From assembly GCA_964398885.1 (NCBI GenBank), contig CAYNOU010000001.1:221-64220 (forward strand): a DNA stretch of 64,000 nt, read 5' to 3'. Within the stretch, counting starts at the first letter, position 1. Every line of letters starts with the position of its first letter. Shown here one piece after another: positions 49,016 through 64,000 of this stretch. The stretch comes from an uncultured Candidatus Cloacimonadota bacterium (GTDB lineage Bacteria; Cloacimonadota; Cloacimonadia; JGIOTU-2). The translations under genes were made by a program, and so were the position numbers. The notes under the pieces were generated by a model. The model was not told the origin of the DNA. It worked only from the letters and a program-made list of their open reading frames with translations, and searched no databases.

Positions 49016-50992
49016 TTATTCTTTTTCTTTTATCTTCAAACTATCTACAGGGATAGTATTGACTATTCTACTTGTGTCTGACAAAGATTCTCTAATATAG
49101 TTGTTTCCATCAAAGAATGTTCTGATAAAAGTTGTTAAGTCAATATTAGGATATTCGTTAATAAGTTCTTTCAAATATGGTTTTGCCGCTGTTGTATCTG
49201 ACAATTCTTCAATCAACAAATATGCCTTAGCATAGAGAGCCTTAGGATAGATTTCACTTTCTGGATAATTTGTAATGATGGTATCTAAATATGACATACT
49301 TTTTTCCAAACCAATACTTTTATTATAGTAATTCATAGATTTATAAAATAGAGATTGGGATTTAAATTCATATTGGGTTGTTAGTTCATAAGGTTTGTTG
49401 TTAAGCATTCTTTTTGCTGCAAAGCAATATTTTGATTCAGGAATATCATTTTCCATACGAGATACTACTTCTTTAGCCAGGAGTGTATCCTTTTTTATGT
49501 TAAATAGTATCCAGGTTTTTAAGAAAAGAGCTTTAGGATAAATTTCATTCTGGTAATACTCAATATTGTTTTTTAAATTTTCAATTTGTGTTGATAGAGG
49601 TTCTTTAGAAATTTCTTCTTTTATATTGGATTTTTCAGATAATGTATCTAAAGTATCTATATCAGATTTAATTGTATCCGATACTGGAATTGCAGTCAAG
49701 CTGTCAGGAATAAAGCTCAGACTATCCTGAATATTTGTTTTTAAACTTTCCGCAATAAAATTATTATAAAGTATATTAAGAGAATCCAACTGACAATTTA
49801 AAATGTTTAATTGATTAATAATCCTATCATATATTGCGATTGCAGAGTCAGGTAGAGATAAATCCAGATTATAGTATTCAGCAATATTGAATTGCGATTC
49901 AACAAGTTCAAGCAAATCATCGGAATTTTGTTTTGATTTATAAGCAATGAATTGATTAGCAGTCTTGATTTTTTTTAAAGCATCTGCCATCAATTCTTTA
50001 TCAATTTTTTCAGATTTTACTTTTTGAAATTTCTCAACAGCATTTTCATAGTCCTTAAGTAAAGAAAAATAGATTTCTCCCCAATGATAATAAGCTATAT
50101 CTGCAATTTGTTTCCCTTTATTTTCGTTAATTAATTTCTCAAAAATTGAAAAGGCAGTTTCTGTATCTCCTGAATAAGCATAACAAATTCCGATGTTCAA
50201 ATCAATTTCATTAATCTTATCATTAATTATTTCATCTTTCTTTAGCTTTTTGAATTGATTCTTTGACTTTTTGTATTGGTTTAACTCCATATAAATCTTA
50301 CCAATATAAAATCTTGTATCTAACCTCATTCGCTTTGGGGGACTGTTTGAAAGAAGCTTATTAAAAGTGACCAATGAGTTATCATATTCTTCATTTTGAT
50401 ATTCAATTTGTGCGTATTGGAAAAGAGCGTTCAGGTAGGATTCTTTTGAAATTTTCTTTTCAATTAAAGTCTGGAGAATTACTTCTGCCTGGGTGTAATC
50501 CTTCTCTTCAAGATAGTATTTTGATAGATATAGATATGCTTGCTCGCGATAAGAAATAAATTTATCATCATTGAAAATAATATTAAACTGGGTTTTTGCC
50601 TCATCAATTTCTTTTAATTTAAGGTATGTTCTTGCGAGGTATAGTATAGTTAAAGGGTATGATGGACTTTCATTGTAATACTGCTCAATTTCCTGAAATT
50701 TTTTCAAAGCTTTCAGATAATGCTCTTGTTCAAAAAAGCATTTTCCCATAAGCAGAAGCGCATCATCTGCATATTTGCTTTTTGGATATTCTTTAATTAC
50801 ATAAGCACATTTTGCAATTGATTTTTCAAATGTTTTTTTAATGCTTGAATTTATTTTATTATTGTTTTTTTCTTTGGCTGTTTTTGCTTCTGTATAGTAT
50901 CTTTTGGCATTGTAAAAGGTGTTAAAATATACATCATAGTAACCACAAGAACTGATTAAGGTAAATATTATAATTAAATAGATTTTTTTCAT
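49016..50992 (-). CDS. TPR-repeat lipoprotein
   Basis: The lipobox is 'LISSC'. TPR-like units recur throughout, for example 'YLKALKKFQEIEQYYNES' and 'YENAVEKFQKV'. Confidence 0.6.
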   Translation of the reverse strand: MKKIYLIIIFTLISSCGYYDVYFNTFYNAKRYYTEAKTAKEKNNNKINSSIKKTFEKSIAKCAYVIKEYPKSKYADDALLLMGKCFFEQEHYLKALKKFQEIEQYYNESPSYPLTILYLARTYLKLKEIDEAKTQFNIIFNDDKFISYREQAYLYLSKYYLEEKDYTQAEVILQTLIEKKISKESYLNALFQYAQIEYQNEEYDNSLVTFNKLLSNSPPKRMRLDTRFYIGKIYMELNQYKKSKNQFKKLKKDEIINDKINEIDLNIGICYAYSGDTETAFSIFEKLINENKGKQIADIAYYHWGEIYFSLLKDYENAVEKFQKVKSEKIDKELMADALKKIKTANQFIAYKSKQNSDDLLELVESQFNIAEYYNLDLSLPDSAIAIYDRIINQLNILNCQLDSLNILYNNFIAESLKTNIQDSLSFIPDSLTAIPVSDTIKSDIDTLDTLSEKSNIKEEISKEPLSTQIENLKNNIEYYQNEIYPKALFLKTWILFNIKKDTLLAKEVVSRMENDIPESKYCFAAKRMLNNKPYELTTQYEFKSQSLFYKSMNYYNKSIGLEKSMSYLDTIITNYPESEIYPKALYAKAYLLIEELSDTTAAKPYLKELINEYPNIDLTTFIRTFFDGNNYIRESLSDTSRIVNTIPVDSLKIKEKE

Positions 50993-53952: not shown

Positions 53953-54672
53953 TCATTTCAAAATAATGCACTTTTTGATAGAAGTAAATGTATCGGTATA
54001 TAATTTGTAGAAATAAATTCCAGAACTCATATCTTTAGCGTTCCATATCAGGTAATGAAAGCCAGCTGGCTTATCTTCATCAACGAGGGTTTCAACTAAT
54101 TGACCTTTTAGATTATAAATTTGCAGTTTGACATTACTGGCTTTTGGTAATGAATAACTGATGAAGGTTGTTGCATTAAAGGGATTAGGGCTGTTTTGTC
54201 TTAGTTGAAACACGGGAGGAATATTAGAACTATTGACATCGGTTAAATATGATGTTAACATATAGGGTTCAAATGGGCTCCCAATAGTTTCTCCATCTTC
54301 AAAGACAATAATCTCATTACAATCATAAACCACATCAGTTGAGTCATCATATATTTTAAAGTTTATCTCTTCTCCGATTATATTTCCGACAATTGTAAGG
54401 TACCAATATCCATCATAGTAAGGTGGGTTGGCTGGTTGCCAGATGCCTACTGCTCGGCAATCAGATTCTCCATCAGGTCCGAACGCACCTAACATATTAT
54501 TCCCATTTCCTTCAAATACTACTCCATCAAATGTAACTTCTGCCATTAAGACCATTGAATATTGAGTTCCATATATGTGCTCCCAGTTTGGTGGGTCTGC
54601 ATATAAAAATTGATTTACAAATATTAATAATAAGATAAGAATAAAAATCTTTATTTTCATTAATTCTTCCAT
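53953..54672 (-). CDS. Small secreted protein: uncharacterised ~110-aa domain + T9SS-type C-terminal domain
   Basis: A signal peptide is present. The C-terminus 'NPFNATTFISYSLPKASNVKLQIYNLKGQLVETL...GIYFYKL' is a canonical T9SS CTD pattern. Confidence 0.7.
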   Translation of the reverse strand: MEELMKIKIFILILLLIFVNQFLYADPPNWEHIYGTQYSMVLMAEVTFDGVVFEGNGNNMLGAFGPDGESDCRAVGIWQPANPPYYDGYWYLTIVGNIIGEEINFKIYDDSTDVVYDCNEIIVFEDGETIGSPFEPYMLTSYLTDVNSSNIPPVFQLRQNSPNPFNATTFISYSLPKASNVKLQIYNLKGQLVETLVDEDKPAGFHYLIWNAKDMSSGIYFYKLYTDTFTSIKKCIILK

Positions 54673-54775
54673 TCGGCTCTATGTGAAATTAATTTATTAA
54701 TTCATATATAAAAATTTGAATATAAGGAAAGGCAGTTTATTTAAAACTACCTTTCCTTTTATTGGTTAACTGCAA

Positions 54776-57700
54776 TTATTTAAGTTTTATTAATTTCTGA
54801 ATTTCAGTATATTTATCAGTCGTTAGTTTATAGAAATATATTCCGCTTGGTAATGAGTTATTTTTAGCATCTTTTCCATTCCATTTTACAAGATATGTAT
54901 CCGGTTCTTTTGTTGAATTAACTAAGGTTTTCACTTTTTGACCTAAGATATTATATATTGAGATATCAACTTTAGTTCTTTCTGGAATTTGATACTTTAT
55001 AGAAGTTGAGTTATAGAAAGGATTGGGATGGGAATTATATAAATTATACTCTTCTGGAATATCACTATTTGAACCATTACAAGTTACAATAACAGCTTTT
55101 TCAGGAGAGCCAATAATAGCATCATTTTGGAAGATTATTTCCTCATTACTTTTAAATGTTTCTTCAGTAACTATATCATAAACTTTGAAATATAATTCTT
55201 CTCCATTCTCATTACCAACTATAGTAAAATACCAAAAATCATACACTTTTTTTCCAACAGAACGACAATTACCTTCATTATCAAAAACTCCTACAATATA
55301 TTTATCAGAGTTGCCAATGGTTTCATTATTGATTTTTATATCTGCCATAGCTATCATATTATATTGTGTCCCGGTGATTAATTGCCATCCTGCCCGATTA
55401 TAATCGTTATTTTTCTTATATAAAGGCTCAGACTTGTCATTTTCAATAAGAGGATAAATTAATACAGAAGAATCAGGTACATTAATTTTATAAGTTACTC
55501 CCGGTTCCAATTGAGTCAAATCACCAATCCAACCACCACTATATATGGCAGATTTGTCTTGTGTCTTTACCACAGTTGCACTTATTGAAGCTAATGCTTC
55601 AGATAAAGTAAGTGAGACATAAGGATAATATCCAACCCAATTCCAATTTGGCACTAAGTTAATTGGATGTGTCACTGGATTTATCGCTGTTCCACTCACA
55701 GTAAATGTATCAACAGCATTATTCATATACACTAGATAACCTTCACCATCGGTTATTTCTGATAAACCTGGACCCCATGATGTTCCATTGTATGTTGTAG
55801 AATTATATTGGTCTTTTACCTGATAAATATCATTTGGTGTTAAAGTATCAAATATTGTTGATATTGAAGGATCAGGTGGATGGAGATTAAATGATATCCA
55901 ATTCCATTCTTCAATTAGAGAGAAGTCTTGGTTATGCATTGGTGAGGGTGCATTTAAGCTAATAGCGTTATCAGTGCAATCTGCAAAAGTTATTGTTTCA
56001 ACACAGTCATAAATGCTGTCTGTTTGGGTTTCATACATTTTGAAGCTAATATCTTCACCAGAGTTGTTGTTACTTACGATTGTTAGATACCAATAGCCAT
56101 CAAGGTCCCAGTAATTAGTCCATAGAGGATGATTACCTTCTTGCCATATAGCTATTCCTCGGCAATCACCTCCAGGTCCAAAAGCAGCTACCTGGTTGCT
56201 CCCTATATGTTTAACAAATTTACCATCATAAGTTACTGTTGCATATTCTATCATTACAAATTGTGTACCCGAGATTACTTCCCAATTAATCAATGTCATA
56301 TCAACATTTCTTGTTGTATCTTCTGCTACAACTTCTACATCACTAATAGTAACACTTGTATAATGATCTAATGAAGCAATAACATCGTAGGTACCACTTA
56401 AGATCTCAATTTGGTAATCACCATTAACATCTGGATGGACTGTTACAGTATCTGCTGTCACATCAACATCCTGCACATTGCCAATTCCATCATAGAGAGT
56501 AACAGTTCCTTCAATATAACCTTCATATCTAATGAGTTGTAATATAAAATTGATATTTTCAGTTATCAGTCCAGATTGAACAACCACATTTGTTATTGTA
56601 GAGTCGCTATAGCCAGCCAAATAGGCGCTAACATTATAAGTTCCTGGTGCAATTTCAATTTCATATTCATAATAAAGTATAATACCGGGATTATAAGGAT
56701 CTTCTACACCATAAGGATGTACAGTTATTCCTCCAGCAGATACTTCGGTTTCTAATATATTACCAATTCCTTCATTGATATCCACTGTTCCTTTAATCTT
56801 ACCAGGTGGAGGAGGAGATAGAGTAAAGTCTAAGATTACTATTTGATTGGCAACATTTACAGAATAATATGATGAAGGATTATATCCTGTTAATGAGGCA
56901 GTAACATCATAAGTTCCTGATGATACATCTAAAAAGTAGTTTCCATCTCCATCAGGATTTACAGTTGTTATTGTATTCGGTGGCGTTAATAAAGTAGCTG
57001 TTACAGTAACATCCTGGACATTACCATAGCCCCCATCAAGAGTAACTACTCCACGAATTCCAGTTTGGACAAAGTAAAAAGCTCCAATATCATTTCTTGT
57101 ATTATCCGGGTCATTGTAAATAGGGTCTGGATGGCCAGTATCAATACAAGGTGATTTTGTTGAATCTGGAGTAGGAATATTAACCCATGTTAAATGAAAA
57201 TCTCCATTTAAGGGGTCTGCAAAAAGTGGGTCAGAATCTACACAGGTTGTGTCAGTATAACTTTGCCCTGTTCCATTCTCAATATCAGAATATGTAGCAG
57301 TTAATGTGCCTCCGCTATCAAAGTAAATTCCATTAATTCCATTATCCCAAACGATACTATTTAACAAAGTAACATCTGAATTAAATAAACATGCAATTCC
57401 GCTTCCACCACTATACGCAAGATTTTTTGAAATAGTTGAATTAATTAATGTAGGATTAGAATTATCAAAGCAGGCGATTCCACCTCCATTCCAGGAGGTA
57501 TTGTTATTATAAATACACACTTTTGTTAGTTCTGGATTGGAAGTATAGCAAAATATACCACCGCCATCATAGGTAGCGGTATTATCATGAACAGAAACAG
57601 TTGTTATATTCGGGTTTGAGTTTAACATATAAATTCCACCGCCATATCCAGCAGCATAATTTTTCATTATCGTTACATTTTCAAAAGTTTCGTTAGAATT

Positions 57701-58114
57701 TTCAAGAAAAACAGCACCACCCGAACTCTCAGCTCCAGTTGCCCTACCGTATTCTAATATGCAATAAGCTAAGCTTGAACCTTCCTGCCCGTTTATATTG
57801 GTGTCATAGAATCTAAGTCCATACCAACCGGTTGTAGTATCCTGTGCAGTAAAAGTAATAAGACTATCAGCATTACCGTCTGCAATTAACCTGCCATATA
57901 CAATGAACTTATAGTGACCAGAGAATTGAACAATTACTCCTGGTTCAATTGATAAAGTACTATCAGATGGAATTGTTATTTCACCATTAATAATATATGG
58001 ACTGCCTGCAAAGGTCCATATTCCGCTGACATTGCCACCGGGAATATTTGTGTCAGCGATTGTAATTGAGGCTGTAAGTAATACACCAAATAAGATAATA
58101 ACTATCTTTTTCAT
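54776..58114 (-). CDS. Large surface protein: right-handed beta-helix + three CarboxypepD_reg-like domains + two copies of the uncharacterised domain + T9SS CTD
   Basis: N-terminal repeats such as 'GGGIYMLNSNPNIT' and 'GGGIFCYTSNPELT' are beta-helix/Pmp-like. 'GTVTLYDGIGNVQDVDVTA...GDYQIEILSGTYDVIASLDHY' is carboxypeptidase-regulatory-like and occurs three times. The CTD is 'NPFYNSTSIKYQIP...ISIYNILGQKV...GIYFYKL'. Confidence 0.75.
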   Translation of the reverse strand: MKKIVIILFGVLLTASITIADTNIPGGNVSGIWTFAGSPYIINGEITIPSDSTLSIEPGVIVQFSGHYKFIVYGRLIADGNADSLITFTAQDTTTGWYGLRFYDTNINGQEGSSLAYCILEYGRATGAESSGGAVFLENSNETFENVTIMKNYAAGYGGGIYMLNSNPNITTVSVHDNTATYDGGGIFCYTSNPELTKVCIYNNNTSWNGGGIACFDNSNPTLINSTISKNLAYSGGSGIACLFNSDVTLLNSIVWDNGINGIYFDSGGTLTATYSDIENGTGQSYTDTTCVDSDPLFADPLNGDFHLTWVNIPTPDSTKSPCIDTGHPDPIYNDPDNTRNDIGAFYFVQTGIRGVVTLDGGYGNVQDVTVTATLLTPPNTITTVNPDGDGNYFLDVSSGTYDVTASLTGYNPSSYYSVNVANQIVILDFTLSPPPPGKIKGTVDINEGIGNILETEVSAGGITVHPYGVEDPYNPGIILYYEYEIEIAPGTYNVSAYLAGYSDSTITNVVVQSGLITENINFILQLIRYEGYIEGTVTLYDGIGNVQDVDVTADTVTVHPDVNGDYQIEILSGTYDVIASLDHYTSVTISDVEVVAEDTTRNVDMTLINWEVISGTQFVMIEYATVTYDGKFVKHIGSNQVAAFGPGGDCRGIAIWQEGNHPLWTNYWDLDGYWYLTIVSNNNSGEDISFKMYETQTDSIYDCVETITFADCTDNAISLNAPSPMHNQDFSLIEEWNWISFNLHPPDPSISTIFDTLTPNDIYQVKDQYNSTTYNGTSWGPGLSEITDGEGYLVYMNNAVDTFTVSGTAINPVTHPINLVPNWNWVGYYPYVSLTLSEALASISATVVKTQDKSAIYSGGWIGDLTQLEPGVTYKINVPDSSVLIYPLIENDKSEPLYKKNNDYNRAGWQLITGTQYNMIAMADIKINNETIGNSDKYIVGVFDNEGNCRSVGKKVYDFWYFTIVGNENGEELYFKVYDIVTEETFKSNEEIIFQNDAIIGSPEKAVIVTCNGSNSDIPEEYNLYNSHPNPFYNSTSIKYQIPERTKVDISIYNILGQKVKTLVNSTKEPDTYLVKWNGKDAKNNSLPSGIYFYKLTTDKYTEIQKLIKLK

Positions 58115-58156: not shown

Positions 58157-60232
58157 TTATGGTGCGACTTGAATAATTTTTAATCCTTCGTTATCTGCTA
58201 AGTATACATAACTGCCAAACTTATAAATGGATACGGGTTCTGTTGACATTTCAAAATTCCCTAAGATATAGGGGGATAAAGGGTTTGAAACATCTATTAC
58301 AATCAAACCCCTATCTTTATCTGCTAAATATACATAATTATCTTGAGCATAAACACTATAGGCAAAACCATTTGTTGGACAATTGGCAACAAGAGTTGGA
58401 GAGTTTACATCAGAAATATCAATAATTTCTAATCCATTCTCACCATTTGCTAAGTATGCATAGTTTTCAAGTACATATACATCCTGTGATAGTCCATTAA
58501 TTGGTAAATTAGAGACAGATGTGGGATTTAATGGATCAGAAATGTCAATAATAGCAAGTCCTCCATTTAGACCATTGGCAACGAATGCATAATCACAATT
58601 GTTTTTAACAAACACTCTTCTTGCATCACCATTGGTTGAGATTTTTGCCCTAAAATGAGGGGGTCCAGATGTGATGATTATTGAAAGTCCAATTTCGCCA
58701 TCTGCAATATATGCATAATCTCCATAGACAAATACATCATTTGGAATGCCATCTTCACCTGTTCCGCAAGAACCAGTTATTATTGGTGCATAAATATTAC
58801 TAATATCTATAAGATTAAAACCTCCATTATGATTTGTAACATATGCATGATTATCCTGTACAAATACAGAAAGCGTTCGGTCTGTTAAACTTAATGTAGT
58901 AATTCCAGTAGGAGAGCTTGGATTTGAACAATCAATTATGGCTAAACCAGCAAATTTTGTTGAAATAAATGCATTATAATTAGAAACAAAAACTTCAGTT
59001 GGGTCGCCAGAAGTAGAAACACTACTTACTAACCCTAACAATATATTTATGCATTCTTCATCAGAATAAGCAGAATATTCTGTTTCATAATATGCTCGTA
59101 CACGATAAGAAAATGTTCCACAAGGTTGTTCAATATCATCTATAAAAGAAGTAGCATTAGTTGCTACAGAATCATACTCTGTAATCCAATCCAATTCACC
59201 AATTTTTTTATCAATATAAAATCCTTGTTCTCCCTGGCTATTATCATCCCACATAATTTTGATTTTACTTGGATCTGGTTTCTGTAATGTAAGATTTGAT
59301 GGTGCAGGAAAGATATTATCAATCTCATCGGTTTCAATAAAGCCAGAATAGTGGTTCTGTCCATAAGCATAGACTCTATATTTTATATTTTGATTAATAT
59401 CAGCATTTTCATCTATCCATTGCGTAGCATTTTCTGCAGTCGTTCCATAGGAGGATTGCCAATTCCCATCGTTAACTTTTTTATCTATTTTAAAACCTTC
59501 CTCTCCATCTGAGTTGTCAGTCCAATTAAGTTGAATCTTGTTTATTGCGAGTATGCTGTATGTTAAGTTTGATGGGCTTGGAAAAGTAGGAGTTATTGAA
59601 TTTTCAGCTGAAACTGATTTTGATTCTCCAACAAAGGCAGAAACTCTGTAATATATTGTATCAAAAAGTGTTGTAGTATCAAGAAAGTTGTTTACATTTG
59701 CTGTAAGCTTTTTGTAGCTATTATTCCATGAACCGTTACCAATCTTTTTATCAATGAGATATCCATCTTCGCCGACGCACCTATCATTCCAGGTTATTTT
59801 AATTGTATCTTGAGATATTTGCTCAATAACAATATTTGATGGTGTAGTATTATCAGAAAAATAAGCGACAACTTCAGAGAAATATGAGGAAGTACCTTCT
59901 GATATATTATCAGCTTTTACCTTATAAGCATAAACTAAACTGTCATTAGTTAGAATATCATCTTTAAATAAATGAGATTCATCGGAAATGACTTCATAAT
60001 TTTCATTCCAGTTACCTTCACCAGCTTTTCTGGCAATAACAAATTGGATAGTATCATTTGTGTTAAAGTAATTCCAGGTTAGTTTTATTCTGCCATCTGC
60101 AATTTTCTCAATTTTCAAATCAGTTGGAGCTTCTTTACTAGGAGCTGTTAGTTTTCCACAACTTATAATATAAAGTAGTATGATAATTAAAGAAAAGAAA
60201 GATAAAATATATTTTTTATTTTTTATTTTCAT
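58157..60232 (-). CDS. Lipoprotein with four Fn3-like domains and seven LVIVD repeats (no T9SS CTD)
   Basis: I prefer the start at 60232 ('MKIKNKKYILSFFSLIIILLYIISCGK', with a lipobox); it overlaps the secretin gene end by 17 nt. Fn3-like units include 'PSNLTYSILAINKIQLNWTDNSDGEEGFKIDKK'. LVIVD units include 'DVYVLENYAYLANGENGLEIIDISDVNSP'. Confidence 0.75.
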   Translation of the reverse strand: MKIKNKKYILSFFSLIIILLYIISCGKLTAPSKEAPTDLKIEKIADGRIKLTWNYFNTNDTIQFVIARKAGEGNWNENYEVISDESHLFKDDILTNDSLVYAYKVKADNISEGTSSYFSEVVAYFSDNTTPSNIVIEQISQDTIKITWNDRCVGEDGYLIDKKIGNGSWNNSYKKLTANVNNFLDTTTLFDTIYYRVSAFVGESKSVSAENSITPTFPSPSNLTYSILAINKIQLNWTDNSDGEEGFKIDKKVNDGNWQSSYGTTAENATQWIDENADINQNIKYRVYAYGQNHYSGFIETDEIDNIFPAPSNLTLQKPDPSKIKIMWDDNSQGEQGFYIDKKIGELDWITEYDSVATNATSFIDDIEQPCGTFSYRVRAYYETEYSAYSDEECINILLGLVSSVSTSGDPTEVFVSNYNAFISTKFAGLAIIDCSNPSSPTGITTLSLTDRTLSVFVQDNHAYVTNHNGGFNLIDISNIYAPIITGSCGTGEDGIPNDVFVYGDYAYIADGEIGLSIIITSGPPHFRAKISTNGDARRVFVKNNCDYAFVANGLNGGLAIIDISDPLNPTSVSNLPINGLSQDVYVLENYAYLANGENGLEIIDISDVNSPTLVANCPTNGFAYSVYAQDNYVYLADKDRGLIVIDVSNPLSPYILGNFEMSTEPVSIYKFGSYVYLADNEGLKIIQVAP

Positions 60233-61415
60233 TTTTTCCTTTTTTATTCTCAATAAATAGTGTATCAATATTAGTTGAATTTTCTCTAAATTCTTCTATC
60301 TTTTCTTTAGTAGAGATAAGTTCTTTTTTTCTCTTATCAAGAGATTTTGCAATTTCAGCCTTTAATATGATAATCATTTCACGAATATTTTTTTCTTTCT
60401 TATTATAACCTGTGAGATAGCGTATTCCGAAGACCCACCATGGTAGGTCTTTTAGAAGTGGAATTCCAGTACGAACTATTGTAACTTCCGTATCATATAG
60501 ACCACCCATCACAGTTTCCTCGCCATCAAATAGTAAAACATCTGTTTCTGATTGACTTGTATGGATAATCGTGCTAATTTCTCCAGGAACTGCTGAACTC
60601 TTTTCAATTTTTGCTTTAAGATGAATAGCTTCTTTCCCATCCTCTTCTATAACGGTTGGTGTAACATCCATAATAACACCTGTTTTAAAGAATTTATCCG
60701 TAATATTTCCAGCTTCATCTGTTTGTTTGACAGAGAAATCATCACCAACTTGAATCTTTCCTGTTTTTCCAGATAAAACGCAAACAGAGGGTCTTGCGAT
60801 AACCGTCCCCTTTTGATTACTTTCAATTATTCGTAAAAGAGCATTAATATCAATAGTTATATCACCTGATTCAAGTCTTGTAGAACCTGTAGCCTGTAAT
60901 AGTTCAGAACCAACCATACTTCCGGCCTTAAAATCAATTGAGGCAACAACCTTATTGTTGAATAGTGTTGACCAGTCAATGCCAATACTGTTTAAGAATG
61001 ATTTATCAGCTTTAAATAGTATTGCACTGATTTTCACCTGTTTGCTATCAATTGAAATTTCTGGTTTTTCTTCTTTTATAACTTCTTCCTCTACTATTAA
61101 ATCTTTAATTAAATATGCACCTGGTAGTTCTTCAAGAACGAGATTATGATAACTAACAATAATATTGAGAGCTTCCTTCCAATATAATTTTTTAATTGGA
61201 ATTCCAATTGGTTTTGTTACGCTACTCATATTAATGATTTTTTTACCTTCAAACTGTTGAGACATAACCTCAAGAGTTTTCAAAGCATCTGGAATAGATA
61301 GAGTTTGAGAAATAGTTATTAATTCTTTTTCACTATAATTTTTACCTATCTGGCGCTGAGCAAATAAGTTAAAATATACAAAAAATATGATTAAAATTAT
61401 AAGTATTTTTTTCAT
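60216..61415 (-). CDS. pilQ: Secretin (type IV pilus/T2SS family), short form
   Basis: The secretin core is 'GTVIARPSVCVLSGKTGKIQVGD...VIMDVTPTV...ETDVLLFDGEETVMGGL...TGIPLLKDLPWWVFGIRYL'. At 399 aa it has room for only one or two N domains. Confidence 0.8.
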   Translation of the reverse strand: MKKILIILIIFFVYFNLFAQRQIGKNYSEKELITISQTLSIPDALKTLEVMSQQFEGKKIINMSSVTKPIGIPIKKLYWKEALNIIVSYHNLVLEELPGAYLIKDLIVEEEVIKEEKPEISIDSKQVKISAILFKADKSFLNSIGIDWSTLFNNKVVASIDFKAGSMVGSELLQATGSTRLESGDITIDINALLRIIESNQKGTVIARPSVCVLSGKTGKIQVGDDFSVKQTDEAGNITDKFFKTGVIMDVTPTVIEEDGKEAIHLKAKIEKSSAVPGEISTIIHTSQSETDVLLFDGEETVMGGLYDTEVTIVRTGIPLLKDLPWWVFGIRYLTGYNKKEKNIREMIIILKAEIAKSLDKRKKELISTKEKIEEFRENSTNIDTLFIENKKGKNENKK

Positions 61416-62284
61416 AAGTTATCCCCATTCATATATATTATTTCCTCTTCACGAATACCAATTCTATTTATCATAAAAACTGCTGCCTGTTTATACCAAT
61501 TAATGTTATCTAAATATCCATAAGCAACCTTTTCACCGGGCGTTAAGGTATGAATCCTTCCTTTATCATCACGCAAAAAAGCTTTATACGGAGTTAATCC
61601 AATTATCGTTGATGTATATATATTTAGAAATTTAAGCTCATATTCATCAGATATAGGGGCATGGATTCTTGAATAAAATGGATTATATCTAAGATTTGTA
61701 AACTTAAAATTTCTAAATGGTATGTTTTTTAGTTCAGTCCCATCCTCATTAAAATATGCATTCAGTGTAATTGTAAAGCTTACTGTATCAGCTTTAGCTA
61801 CAGATTGTTCAGCAATTTTAATAGATTCAATTGTATAAAGAGGGGATTGATACTCAATTTGAAATACAAAAAAATAAAGAGATTTTATATCAGCATTACC
61901 AGAAATCGTGTATGTATTAAAAGAAAATTCTTTAACCTTTCCAGACTTTGAAATCTGAAAATTAAAACTTACATCAGGGCAGAAATTATCCGCAATATCA
62001 ACTAAATATTGGTATGTAAGAGTTGGAGTGTCTTCTCTTAGTATAAGTTTACTGTTTTCAAGAACTTCTTTTTTCATATCCTCAAGAGATTGCATAACCT
62101 TTTCTTCATTTTCCAAATCTGGATTTGCCTTTTTGAGTCCTTCAAGCATCTCTGAGTTTTCTTTGTTTGCCTTTTTCATTTTTTCTAATCTTCTAACAGA
62201 ATTTGCGTTAGCCAAGATAGTGCCAATTATTACAATTAACAATAAAACAACTAAAACAATTGTATTTCTAACCGTATATGGCAT
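61412..62284 (-). CDS. PilO-like protein with PilP-like C-terminal extension
   Basis: An N-terminal TM helix is followed by a coiled coil and an alpha/beta domain ('YTISGNADIKSLYFFVFQIE'). The C-terminal 'IGLTPYKAFLRDDKGRIHTLTPGEKVAYGYLDNI' is PilP-like. The gene has a 4-nt overlap with the secretin start. Confidence 0.5.
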   Translation of the reverse strand: MPYTVRNTIVLVVLLLIVIIGTILANANSVRRLEKMKKANKENSEMLEGLKKANPDLENEEKVMQSLEDMKKEVLENSKLILREDTPTLTYQYLVDIADNFCPDVSFNFQISKSGKVKEFSFNTYTISGNADIKSLYFFVFQIEYQSPLYTIESIKIAEQSVAKADTVSFTITLNAYFNEDGTELKNIPFRNFKFTNLRYNPFYSRIHAPISDEYELKFLNIYTSTIIGLTPYKAFLRDDKGRIHTLTPGEKVAYGYLDNINWYKQAAVFMINRIGIREEEIIYMNGDNL

Positions 62285-62289
62285 ATTAT

Positions 62290-64000
62290 CTATTTCCCAA
62301 AAACATTTATTTTATATTGAGCGATTTTTGCTAATTTATTATTTGGGTAATCGGTTACTAATTTATTCCAATAATAAATTGCACTATTAATGTCAGTTAG
62401 TCTTTGGCAAGAGTTCCCAAGCATAATAAGAGCATCGGATGTTTTAGTTCCCTTTAGTTTAATTATTTTTTCAAATATAGATTTTGCCTGGTTAATTTTA
62501 TCTAATCTGTACAAGCATTCTCCAATAAGATAACTGGCATTATATGCGAGAGGATGGGTTGGATAATTTTCAATAAACTTATTTAACTCTTTATATGCTT
62601 TTTCAATATTTCCAGAAAAATATGTTTCTACGATACTATGATAAATCTCTGAAATATTTTCATCATATTCTATTTTTTCTATCCAATAACTGTTAATAAA
62701 AGGAAATTGTTCCTTTATTTTTTCTCCCATTGCAACAGCTTCGGACTTTGTATATGTACTATCCAGCCGTAAGCGATAGAAAATTTCCCCGTCTTTTTTA
62801 ACCGAAGAAACTTTTGTTTTATATCCATATTGTTCTATTTTGCTCTTTGCTTCTTCAACTTTTGAAAGGTTTTTTCTTGATACTAATTGTAATTCAAATA
62901 CATTTTTTTCATTATCTTTTTTATAAGAAGCATATTCATTTTGTGATATTTTAGATACTGATTTTTCTATAATTTTGTTTATAGCCGCTTCAGGCACTCT
63001 TTCCATTTCTTCTTTATTAATATCCTTAGTTTTAGAAAAAGTATTAATTTTATTTTGAGCGATTTTTGCTAATTTATTATTTGGGTAATCGGTTACTAAT
63101 TTATTCCAATAATAAATTGCACTATTAATGTCACTTAGTCTTTGGCAAGAGTTCCCAAGCATAATAAGAGCATCAGGTGTTTTTATTCCACTTTGTTTAA
63201 GAATATTTTCAAAGATATCTTTCGCGTCTGAAATTTTTCCCATCGTGTAAAGACATTCCCCCATAAGATAATTAGCATTATAAGAATATTTACACTCAGG
63301 ATATTCTAAAACAAATTCTTTAAACCTTTCGTATGCCTCTTTTGAATTACTTGCAAAATATAATTTTGTAATAGAGTTATAAATTTTTAATTTGTCTTTT
63401 TCAGAAGCTTCTTTATAAATCTCAGGTTCAAGTGGTTCTTCAGTTATTGGTTCTGATGGTTTTTCCATCACTTCAGCTATGTGAATTTTAGATAAACTTT
63501 CTTCTTTTTCTTCTTTAATATCTTTTGGATTAGGATATGAAAAAGTCATATCATATTTCCAGATTGGTAAATCTTGAATGGAATGTTCTGTAATTCTTTC
63601 AATTCTGCCATCAGGAAATAGTTTTGAAAACCCGATAATATTCCGTTTTTTCGTTGTATATCCTGAAATTTGAAAGTTATTTTCTGAGCTTTTCAAATTA
63701 GTTATCCAACTTATTTTATTTTCTAAGAATGAATTTGCTATAACATTTAGGATATAATGCCACTGATTTTTGTTTCCTGTTAATTTCTCTATTTTTTTAA
63801 CATTTGCTTCCAGAATAGCAAGTTCTTTTTTTACTTTATCAAGCTTAGCAATTATAACCTTATGCTTTTTTAGTTCAACTTCCAGATTTATATTCACTTT
63901 TCCCGCATCTAAGACCTCTTGCTTCAGGTTCATATTTCTGATAGTGCCGATTAAAGCAAAATAGAATATTCCAGCTAAAACAAAAAATCCATGCCATGCT
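62290..64000 (-). CDS. 5'-truncated PilN-like protein fused to TPR - SPOR - TPR modules
   Basis: The frame stays open upstream of the ATG at 63933 to the window edge ('AWHGFFVLAGIFYFALIGTIRN' is a TM helix). The coiled coil 'KLDKVKKELAILEANVKKIEKL' is PilN-like. There are two YbgF-like TPR modules, and a SPOR-like 'FELQLVSRKNLSKVEEAKSKIEQYGYKTKV...YRLRLDS' lies between them. Confidence 0.6.
   Translation of the reverse strand, partial: AWHGFFVLAGIFYFALIGTIRNMNLKQEVLDAGKVNINLEVELKKHKVIIAKLDKVKKELAILEANVKKIEKLTGNKNQWHYILNVIANSFLENKISWITNLKSSENNFQISGYTTKKRNIIGFSKLFPDGRIERITEHSIQDLPIWKYDMTFSYPNPKDIKEEKEESLSKIHIAEVMEKPSEPITEEPLEPEIYKEASEKDKLKIYNSITKLYFASNSKEAYERFKEFVLEYPECKYSYNANYLMGECLYTMGKISDAKDIFENILKQSGIKTPDALIMLGNSCQRLSDINSAIYYWNKLVTDYPNNKLAKIAQNKINTFSKTKDINKEEMERVPEAAINKIIEKSVSKISQNEYASYKKDNEKNVFELQLVSRKNLSKVEEAKSKIEQYGYKTKVSSVKKDGEIFYRLRLDSTYTKSEAVAMGEKIKEQFPFINSYWIEKIEYDENISEIYHSIVETYFSGNIEKAYKELNKFIENYPTHPLAYNASYLIGECLYRLDKINQAKSIFEKIIKLKGTKTSDALIMLGNSCQRLTDINSAIYYWNKLVTDYPNNKLAKIAQYKINVFGK
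62317..62436. repeat. 120-bp near-identical intragenic direct repeat, copy 1
   Basis: It matches 63055-63174 (offset 738 nt) with 1 mismatch by eye. It encodes 'ALIMLGNSCQRL(T/S)DINSAIYYWNKLVTDYPNNKLAKIAQ'. Confidence 0.85.
63055..63174. repeat. 120-bp near-identical intragenic direct repeat, copy 2
   Basis: See the partner feature at 62317-62436. Confidence 0.85.

Follow-up and report, generated by a model that had tools for sequence, protein, structure and literature searches.

The closest described relative of the gene cluster reported here is the type IVa pilus of Myxococcus xanthus and Pseudomonas aeruginosa. The cluster belongs to an uncultured member of Cloacimonadota, a phylum of abundant uncultured fermenters and syntrophs of digesters, sediments and anoxic lakes. 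In the papers searched, type IV pilus genes of this phylum receive only passing mention. We analyzed a stretch of 64,000 nt (hereafter, the window; positions 221–64,220 of contig C1, which runs 35 kb further, in a genome of 2.56 Mb and 126 contigs) that ends, on the minus strand, in a block of genes for parts of a pilus alignment complex, a short secretin, a lipoprotein with fibronectin type III (Fn3) and LVIVD repeats, and two predicted cargo proteins of a type IX secretion system (T9SS). We found in the literature no description of an LVIVD or propeller lipoprotein associated with a secretin, nor of a T9SS link in Cloacimonadota; from its predicted function, the block would represent a known machine, the type IV pilus, with a previously undescribed attachment of lipoprotein and cargo.

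Domains were called by profile searches with Pfam and NCBIfam, and fold identity was assigned by comparing AlphaFold2 (AF2) models with structures in the PDB. Conservation was surveyed in 232 Cloacimonadota genomes, whose families and genera are numbered here with the prefixes f and g, and adjacency was counted by comparing coordinates. The phylum labels given by NCBI to metagenome-assembled genomes (MAGs), such as Armatimonadota, Marinimicrobia and Bacteroidales, were not relied on; the matches from an 'Armatimonadota' MAG were identical in contig numbers, coordinates and scores to those from genome G174, which is inside the class of the window.

Comparison with described systems

The locus and its genome share with the type IVa pilus the PilB, PilC and PilT proteins, the PilM fold, the ferredoxin-like cores of PilN and PilO, a small beta-sandwich in the place of PilP and an N0-bearing secretin of the PilQ type, as well as a sigma-54 PilR/PilS pair beside the major pilin and a prepilin peptidase elsewhere in the genome. 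Unlike in that system, PilM and PilN are here fused and extended by TPR-SPOR-TPR modules, PilO bears a PilP-like tail (a weak fold match), the secretin has only 399 aa and is free of AMIN domains, the G-F-T-L-x-E start is missing from the pilins, and genes for a lipoprotein and T9SS cargo are situated behind the secretin gene. A PilM-PilN-type fusion (weak NCBIfam match to the Amuc_1101 family), a fold match to Amuc_1100 and a secretin in the operon also relate the locus to Amuc_1098-1102 of Akkermansia; scores are far under the family cut-offs, so the locus is not a member, and Amuc_1098 is ca. 800 aa long vs. the 399 aa of the secretin studied here. To our knowledge, there is no Fn3/LVIVD lipoprotein or T9SS cargo at Amuc_1098-1102.

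The locus resembles a type II secretion system (T2SS) in having a fused protein that, like GspL, joins an actin-like part in the cytoplasm to a ferredoxin-like part in the periplasm, in the shortness of its secretin and in coding for a large lipoprotein beside the machine. T2SSs carry lipoprotein substrates, such as PulA (Klebsiella Pul) and MtrC and OmcA (Shewanella Gsp). In contrast to a T2SS, the locus includes a PilT retraction ATPase and PilS/R, and the T2SS models scored under their cut-offs (GspE, 370 vs. 630; GspD, 57 vs. 351; GspM, E 0.006), with no GspC PDZ domain or GspS pilotin found. Identity as a T2SS was therefore rejected, given the PilT-family ATPase, PilS/R and the GspE and GspD scores, far under the cut-off.

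Two kinds of envelope partners are also comparable with the lipoprotein. Secretin pilotins and accessory lipoproteins (PilF/PilW/Tgl, PulS/AspS, TsaP) are, like it, outer-membrane lipoproteins genetically tied to a secretin, but the one studied here has an entirely different architecture, of Fn3 plus an LVIVD propeller, and is paired with T9SS cargo, and most of the phylum can do without it. The encoding of a large T9SS surface protein beside a dedicated envelope partner recalls SprB with SprF/PorP-like proteins, although here the partner is a lipoprotein and not a PorP-type barrel, and the cargo carries C-terminal domains (CTDs) of type A. T9SS accessory proteins with a beta-propeller, such as PorZ and PorE, are also comparable, and in Porphyromonas beta-propeller proteins take part in the attachment step of the T9SS; no homology of the lipoprotein to PorZ or PorE was detected.

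The lipoprotein gene is coupled to the secretin gene and followed by T9SS cargo genes

The initial annotation of the window had placed T9SS cargo genes behind a secretin and a lipoprotein gene in one co-directional block; the open reading frames (ORFs), their strand, their order and their domain calls were all reproduced, and the block is conserved in relatives. The secretin gene (60216–61415, on the minus strand like all the window features described in this section) overlaps by 4 nt (61412–61415) the preceding gene, coding for a PilO-like protein, and its stop codon is overlapped by the start of the gene for the 691-aa lipoprotein (58157–60232), with 17 nt in common; both overlaps are real. 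The lipoprotein ORF is open to 60268, and its ATG at 60232 has an AAGGA sequence 5 nt upstream and is followed by a signal peptide ending at the lipobox IISC. In 10 of the 12 loci compared, a mere 55–61 nt separate the secretin stop from the lipobox Cys, so that the signal peptide must start inside the secretin gene and the overlap is, in these loci, forced. The 17-nt overlap, from 60216 to 60232, leaves no room for a promoter or a terminator between both genes.

A distance of 42 nt, containing a strong ribosome binding site (AAGGAGG), separates the lipoprotein stop from the gene for a 1112-aa beta-helix protein (54776–58114), which in turn precedes the gene for a small protein of 239 aa (53953–54672). 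Directly 3′ of the 1112-aa gene, and thus between these last two genes, RNA folding predicts a terminator-like hairpin (54700–54760) whose stem of 15 bp precedes a U-rich tract, with a stability of −24.1 kcal/mol (z −4.7; 0 of 200 shuffles were as stable). This is the only strong terminator-like hairpin in the lipoprotein and cargo stretch. It was missed by the terminator consensus scan because its U-rich run starts more than 2 bases from the stem, against the tail rule of the scan. Consensus scans showed no enrichment over shuffles for promoters (74 vs. 62±9.5) or terminators (7 vs. 4.1±2.4), and found no site at the gene junctions.

The description of the lipoprotein as a protein with four Fn3 and seven LVIVD repeats also held. 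The LVIVD model PF08309 scores 161 bits (cut-off 20.2), with six scoring repeats and a short seventh, the last one, that can be read by eye in the sequence. Four Fn3-like modules of ca. 90 aa are likewise readable (APTDL.., TPSNI.., SPSNL.., APSNL..); their Pfam match is weak (E 0.0012), and the profile of the lipoprotein family matches fibronectin in the PDB (5e-6). Members of the family have 600–690 aa, with three to four Fn3 modules and a seven-bladed LVIVD propeller, and the lipobox is kept in 13 orthologues. LVIVD and Fn3 are the only Pfam and NCBIfam matches of the lipoprotein, which has no similarity to the TPR pilotins PilF/PilW/Tgl or to those of the PulS/AspS type. A role of the propeller as a PilY1-like tip adhesin was considered and rejected, because there is no match to the PilY1/PilC family in Pfam, because a lipoprotein is encoded, and because the gene is positioned after that of the secretin, outside the row of minor pilin genes.

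The 1112-aa and 239-aa proteins are, from their domains, predicted T9SS-exported cargo of type A. Their type-A CTDs (TIGR04183, cut-off 23) score 42 and 43 bits, respectively. The large protein combines a beta-helix, three immunoglobulin (Ig)-like CarboxypepD_reg domains, two copies of a domain of ca. 110 aa and the CTD, and a PDB search with it returned only matches to CarboxypepD-type Ig domains. The small one consists of a single copy of the ca. 110-aa domain and the CTD, and some of its relatives reach ca. 730 aa, with three copies. This shared domain has the signature NW..I.GTQY.M ... DCR ... YWYFTIVGN ... FK.Y, and no relative of it was found in Pfam or the PDB. The genome encodes a T9SS, with SprA_N (106 bits, contig C22) and a PorU sortase (571 bits vs. 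a cut-off of 420, contig C3), and contains at least 50 ORFs with a CTD.

Distribution of the arrangement across Cloacimonadota

An orthologue of the secretin was present in 172 of the 232 genomes, and the Fn3/LVIVD lipoprotein in 61–63, essentially as a single copy, which amounts to about a quarter of the phylum and a third of the secretin-bearing genomes. Every one of the 63 lipoprotein-bearing genomes also had the secretin, a co-occurrence whose hypergeometric probability, with no correction for phylogeny, is 1.5e-10 if genomes are counted and 2.7e-4 if genera are. The lipoprotein gene was directly downstream of the secretin gene, mostly overlapping it, in 49 genomes (16 from f1, one from f2, 27 from f8 and five from genera g62/g63 of f17). 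In these 49 species-level genomes the arrangement is colinear, down to a protein identity of ca. 29 %. The coupling of the secretin to an LVIVD lipoprotein, first noticed in the window, is therefore real, translationally tight and conserved. Judged from this gene order, the secretin-lipoprotein-cargo arrangement is more than chance. In addition, PilT, PilMN, PilO, the secretin, the lipoprotein and the 1112-aa cargo, together with the small cargo, are encoded in the same order in ca. 28 named Cloacimonadota MAGs; the related loci include that of Ca. Celaenobacter antarcticus, and the same gene order appears on metagenome contigs with 34–47 % identity.

The lipoprotein is not a constant companion of the secretin. 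More than 100 genomes, comprising all those of f6, several genera of f8 (for instance g61), f10 and others, contain an orthologous secretin (45–57 % identity) together with the other parts of the machine, with no Fn3/LVIVD lipoprotein anywhere; in them, unrelated genes follow the secretin gene. Conversely, in at least 10 genomes (f5, f7, f9, f11, f13, f15 and genus g64 of f17) and on two metagenome contigs, the lipoprotein gene is situated away from the secretin gene. It then belongs to a stand-alone unit, composed of genes for a small histidine-kinase-like protein (ca. 214 aa), the lipoprotein and a giant protein of Ig repeats. At the loci that extend to the C-terminus of the giant protein (L162, L167), a T9SS CTD is found there.

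A large T9SS cargo gene is found behind the lipoprotein gene wherever downstream sequence exists, with one locus having only a remnant. In genomes from f1, f2 and f8, this is the colinear 1112-aa beta-helix gene, with 35–66 % identity, followed by the conserved gene for the 239-aa protein, and in g62/g63 of f17 it is the giant Ig-repeat cargo gene of the stand-alone units, here behind a secretin-lipoprotein junction. The cargo is always downstream while the upstream neighbor changes; therefore, it is the large T9SS cargo that constantly accompanies the lipoprotein.

Two loci deserve separate mention. In the single-cell genome SCGC AAA252-N17 (L034, G015:C4), the 1112-aa gene has shrunk to the N-terminal ca. 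74 aa plus the CTD. The same-genus MAG G001 contains two diverged secretin-lipoprotein junctions (C227 and C134); its contamination is estimated at 8 %, and it probably holds two strains in one bin.

Possible roles of the lipoprotein and its cargo

On balance, we consider it probable, if only modestly so, that the lipoprotein and the T9SS proteins form an accessory surface module that was recruited into the pilus operon, being inserted behind the secretin gene in several families. By comparison of the loci, the lipoprotein and a large T9SS cargo are a stable pair, which stands alone in some families behind the small histidine kinase and was inserted behind the secretin gene in others; the lipoprotein would act as the outer-membrane partner or anchor of the protein delivered by the T9SS. 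The location of the pair in the pilus operon would cause the pilus and a surface adhesin or enzyme to be made together and in a fixed ratio, with which the cell would attach to particles or polymers. In such a scheme the lipoprotein may also touch the secretin, and the data do not require it to do so. Several observations weigh against recruitment of an accessory module. An overlap of this kind with the gene for the secretin would be expected of physically interacting partners, favoring a closer tie to the secretin, and the presence of the secretin in all the lipoprotein-bearing genomes also fits a dependence on the pilus machine for export. Moreover, neither the beta-helix protein nor the shared ca. 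110-aa domain has a Pfam or PDB match pointing to a function, and a peptidoglycan-anchoring role of the SPOR and TPR modules would follow from domain identity alone.

A possible, although unlikely, alternative, also raised in the initial annotation as a secretin substrate, is that the lipoprotein is itself a cargo of this pilus or T2SS-like machine, which would pass through the secretin after lipidation, like PulA and MtrC/OmcA with the T2SS, and dock the T9SS proteins at the cell surface. This would agree with the strict co-occurrence with the secretin (63 of 63 genomes), the tight coupling of both genes, the presence in the machine of a GspL-like fused PilMN, and the existence of another large lipoprotein encoded behind the secretin of genome G132. 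A combination of Fn3 and LVIVD is also typical of surface proteins (PMC2447325). Nevertheless, PilT, PilS/R and the set of pilins are like those of a true pilus, the lipoprotein is encoded far from the secretin in at least 10 genomes, and the secretion signal for such machines is not readable from sequence.

We regard as rather improbable a direct link of two secretion machines by the lipoprotein, by which it would be delivered to, or sit on, the pilus secretin and capture at the surface a giant adhesin or enzyme exported by the T9SS. If this were true, the pilus pore would double as the assembly site of a surface complex fed by the T9SS, a hand-over so far undescribed. If the module should consist only of co-regulated adhesion genes, its recognition would be a useful annotation and no more.

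The initial annotation suggested a pilotin- or cap-like partner of the secretin, a role that now appears decidedly improbable. The lipoprotein would in that case participate, as a pilotin or as a ring or cap component, in the targeting, assembly or gating of the short secretin, as might be expected of an outer-membrane lipoprotein whose gene overlaps the secretin stop, in a position held in 49 genomes, and of a secretin devoid of AMIN and other accessory domains. The distribution of the lipoprotein makes this role unlikely, because more than 100 genomes carry the orthologous secretin and the whole machine without it and at least 10 encode it away from the secretin, as stand-alone copies; besides, it only shows LVIVD and Fn3 and no pilotin likeness, and its constant neighbor at nearly every locus is a T9SS cargo.

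Finally, mere genomic neighborhood, with surface-protein genes functionally unrelated to the pilus and inherited in a few related families, is very improbable because the arrangement is so widely conserved: the 49 adjacent cases fall in only four families (f1, f2, f8 and f17) and could derive from one or two insertions, the module was lost in several f8 genera, and T9SS cargo genes are very common here (at least 50), but the gene order and the overlap with the secretin stop are kept though the proteins diverge to 29–40 % identity, two types of cargo occur behind the same secretin-lipoprotein junction, and no lipoprotein without secretin was found in the 232 genomes.

The survey defines a phylum-wide pilus machine with unusual fusions, together with a conserved single-copy lipoprotein tied to the secretin gene. 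The module gives candidates for how Cloacimonadota attach to particles and polymers, and also for the anchoring of minimal secretins that lack AMIN domains, for partners of large T9SS cargo outside Bacteroidota and for cooperation between type IV and type IX systems.

The pilus machine

With confidence, we assign the block to the distal end of a type IVa-pilus-like cluster typical of Cloacimonadota, with a fused PilM-N, a PilO with a PilP-like tail and a minimal secretin. Initially, it was considered that PilM and other components may lie beyond position 64,000, and extension along the contig indeed revealed PilM, PilB, PilC, PilT and pilin-like genes just past the window. A complete type IV pilus set is thus encoded upstream, and the adjacency of the secretin and lipoprotein genes is conserved in relatives, so the finding of their association stands.

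The first gene of the block (62290 to beyond 64000, minus strand) is open at the end of the window, where its ORF codes for the C-terminal 569 aa of the product and shows TPR and SPOR matches. It had been taken for a PilN-like gene, which is correct for the PilN-like core with TPR-SPOR-TPR modules; the gene is in fact cut by the window, and the full gene (L001:290–3109, reaching the window-equivalent base 65109) codes for 939 aa. From its model, the product is a PilM-PilN fusion extended in the periplasm by TPR-SPOR-TPR, so that, as initially proposed, components of the alignment complex are fused, here in a single protein. It comprises, in this order, a PilM part (the N-terminal ca. 350 aa), a transmembrane helix, a long coiled coil, a ferredoxin-like PilN core and the periplasmic TPR-SPOR-TPR region. 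An AF2 model of residues 1–540 had a predicted local distance difference test (pLDDT) score of 78, and its ten best PDB matches were all PilM (E 2e-15 to 9e-13), including 5eou (E 2e-15), 3jc8_Ma and 2ych, with FtsA next. The two YbgF-type TPR modules that flank SPOR score 145–147 bits with TIGR02795, and SPOR itself (PF05036, cut-off 21) is marginal, scoring 23.0 bits for the fragment inside the window and 21.8 bits for the complete protein.

The length of the PilM-PilN protein varies from 551 to 954 aa across lineages; therefore, TPR and SPOR are optional additions to it. Since the secretin is devoid of AMIN domains, it is probably through the SPOR/TPR tail of PilN that the machine is tied to peptidoglycan. 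In one related MAG (L107), a tail of OmpA and TPR is instead carried by the secretin, and we infer from these domains that the SPOR, TPR and OmpA modules may be a movable peptidoglycan anchor of the machine.

The 290-aa protein encoded next (61412–62284, minus strand) was modeled by AF2 with a pLDDT of 81, as a transmembrane helix, a coiled coil, a ferredoxin-like core with two alpha-beta-beta units and a small C-terminal beta-sandwich. Its best fold matches were PilO structures (3jc8_Oa, 2rjz and 5uvr; E 3e-4 to 3e-3), followed by those of Amuc_1100. The earlier view of a PilO-like protein with a PilP-like tail is thus borne out by fold for PilO and only weakly for PilP (3jc8_Pa, rank 15, E 0.016). 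The identities of PilO and PilM were established by fold comparison, because searches with the 290-aa protein and with the PilMN N-terminus found no sequence-level match in Pfam, NCBIfam or the PDB.

Farther upstream on contig C1 there are genes for PilT, a response regulator with a cNMP (cyclic nucleotide)-binding domain, a PilS-like kinase, two pilin-like proteins with LamG and two small pilin-like ones; beyond these, the contig codes for PilB, PilC, a PIN toxin-antitoxin pair, a putative major pilin of 155 aa, and a sigma-54 response regulator with its kinase (PilS/R). PilB (593 aa) matches T2SSE (PF00437) with 330 bits, and its best NCBIfam match is type_IV_pilB, with 419 bits and under the equivalog cut-off of 676. 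PilT scores 312.7 bits with the PilT/PilU model TIGR01420 (cut-off 319), and PilC 81 bits with T2SSF (PF00482). The A24 prepilin peptidase is encoded on contig C6 (PF01478, 78 bits). All five pilin-like proteins (L001:9524–10554, L001:6492–8893, L053:2382–2849) begin with MG or MNMG and run straight into a hydrophobic helix, lacking both a leader and Glu5, and none of the ORFs of the genome showed the canonical pilin start G-F-T-L-x-E, searched as G[FMILVYW][STA]..E in a pilin-like context. No gene for a Tgl/PilF-type pilotin or for TsaP was seen in the pilus cluster.

Within this cluster, the putative major pilin gene is separated from pilC by an insertion (L053:1183–1970) that consists of the genes for the PIN-domain toxin (141 aa) and the small antitoxin-like protein (73 aa). 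The tightly packed row of minor pilin genes is in turn interrupted by a gap of ca. 630 bp that contains no long ORF (L001:8893–9524, window-equivalent 70893–71524).

The 399-aa secretin is indeed short, as was first observed, and consists of a signal peptide, an N0 domain, an N3-like domain and the secretin domain (PF00263, 94 bits), that is, a minimal N0-N3-secretin PilQ, and Pfam and profile searches found no AMIN domains in it. The best PDB match of its family profile is PilQ from M. xanthus (3jc8, 7e-20), where N0 and an N3-like part are matched as separate stretches, and the PilQ N0 structure 4ar0 is also matched; the best NCBIfam match is IV_pilus_PilQ, with 90 bits vs. a cut-off of 284.

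Other secretins from the survey differ in size and appended domains. The orthologue from a MAG labeled Neomarinimicrobiota (L107:5397–7901) has 834 aa, with a C-terminal tail of OmpA and TPR, and is followed by an Fn3/LVIVD lipoprotein gene that is divided between two contigs. In family f10 (L145, G132:C1:3559000–3569000), the secretin has 670 aa and is fused to a C-terminal beta-barrel domain of the outer membrane protein (OMP) type; the lipoprotein encoded behind it, of 1627 aa, contains 15 CHB_HEX_C_1/Fn3_assoc repeats and an FGE-sulfatase domain.

Back in the window, three genes downstream of the block, after those for a DUF5683 protein and a histidine ammonia-lyase, a gene at 49016–50992 (minus strand) codes for a 658-aa TPR lipoprotein whose match to PorW/SprE, a T9SS component, stays under the threshold (100 bits, cut-off 250); the neighborhood between this gene and the block is not kept in relatives.

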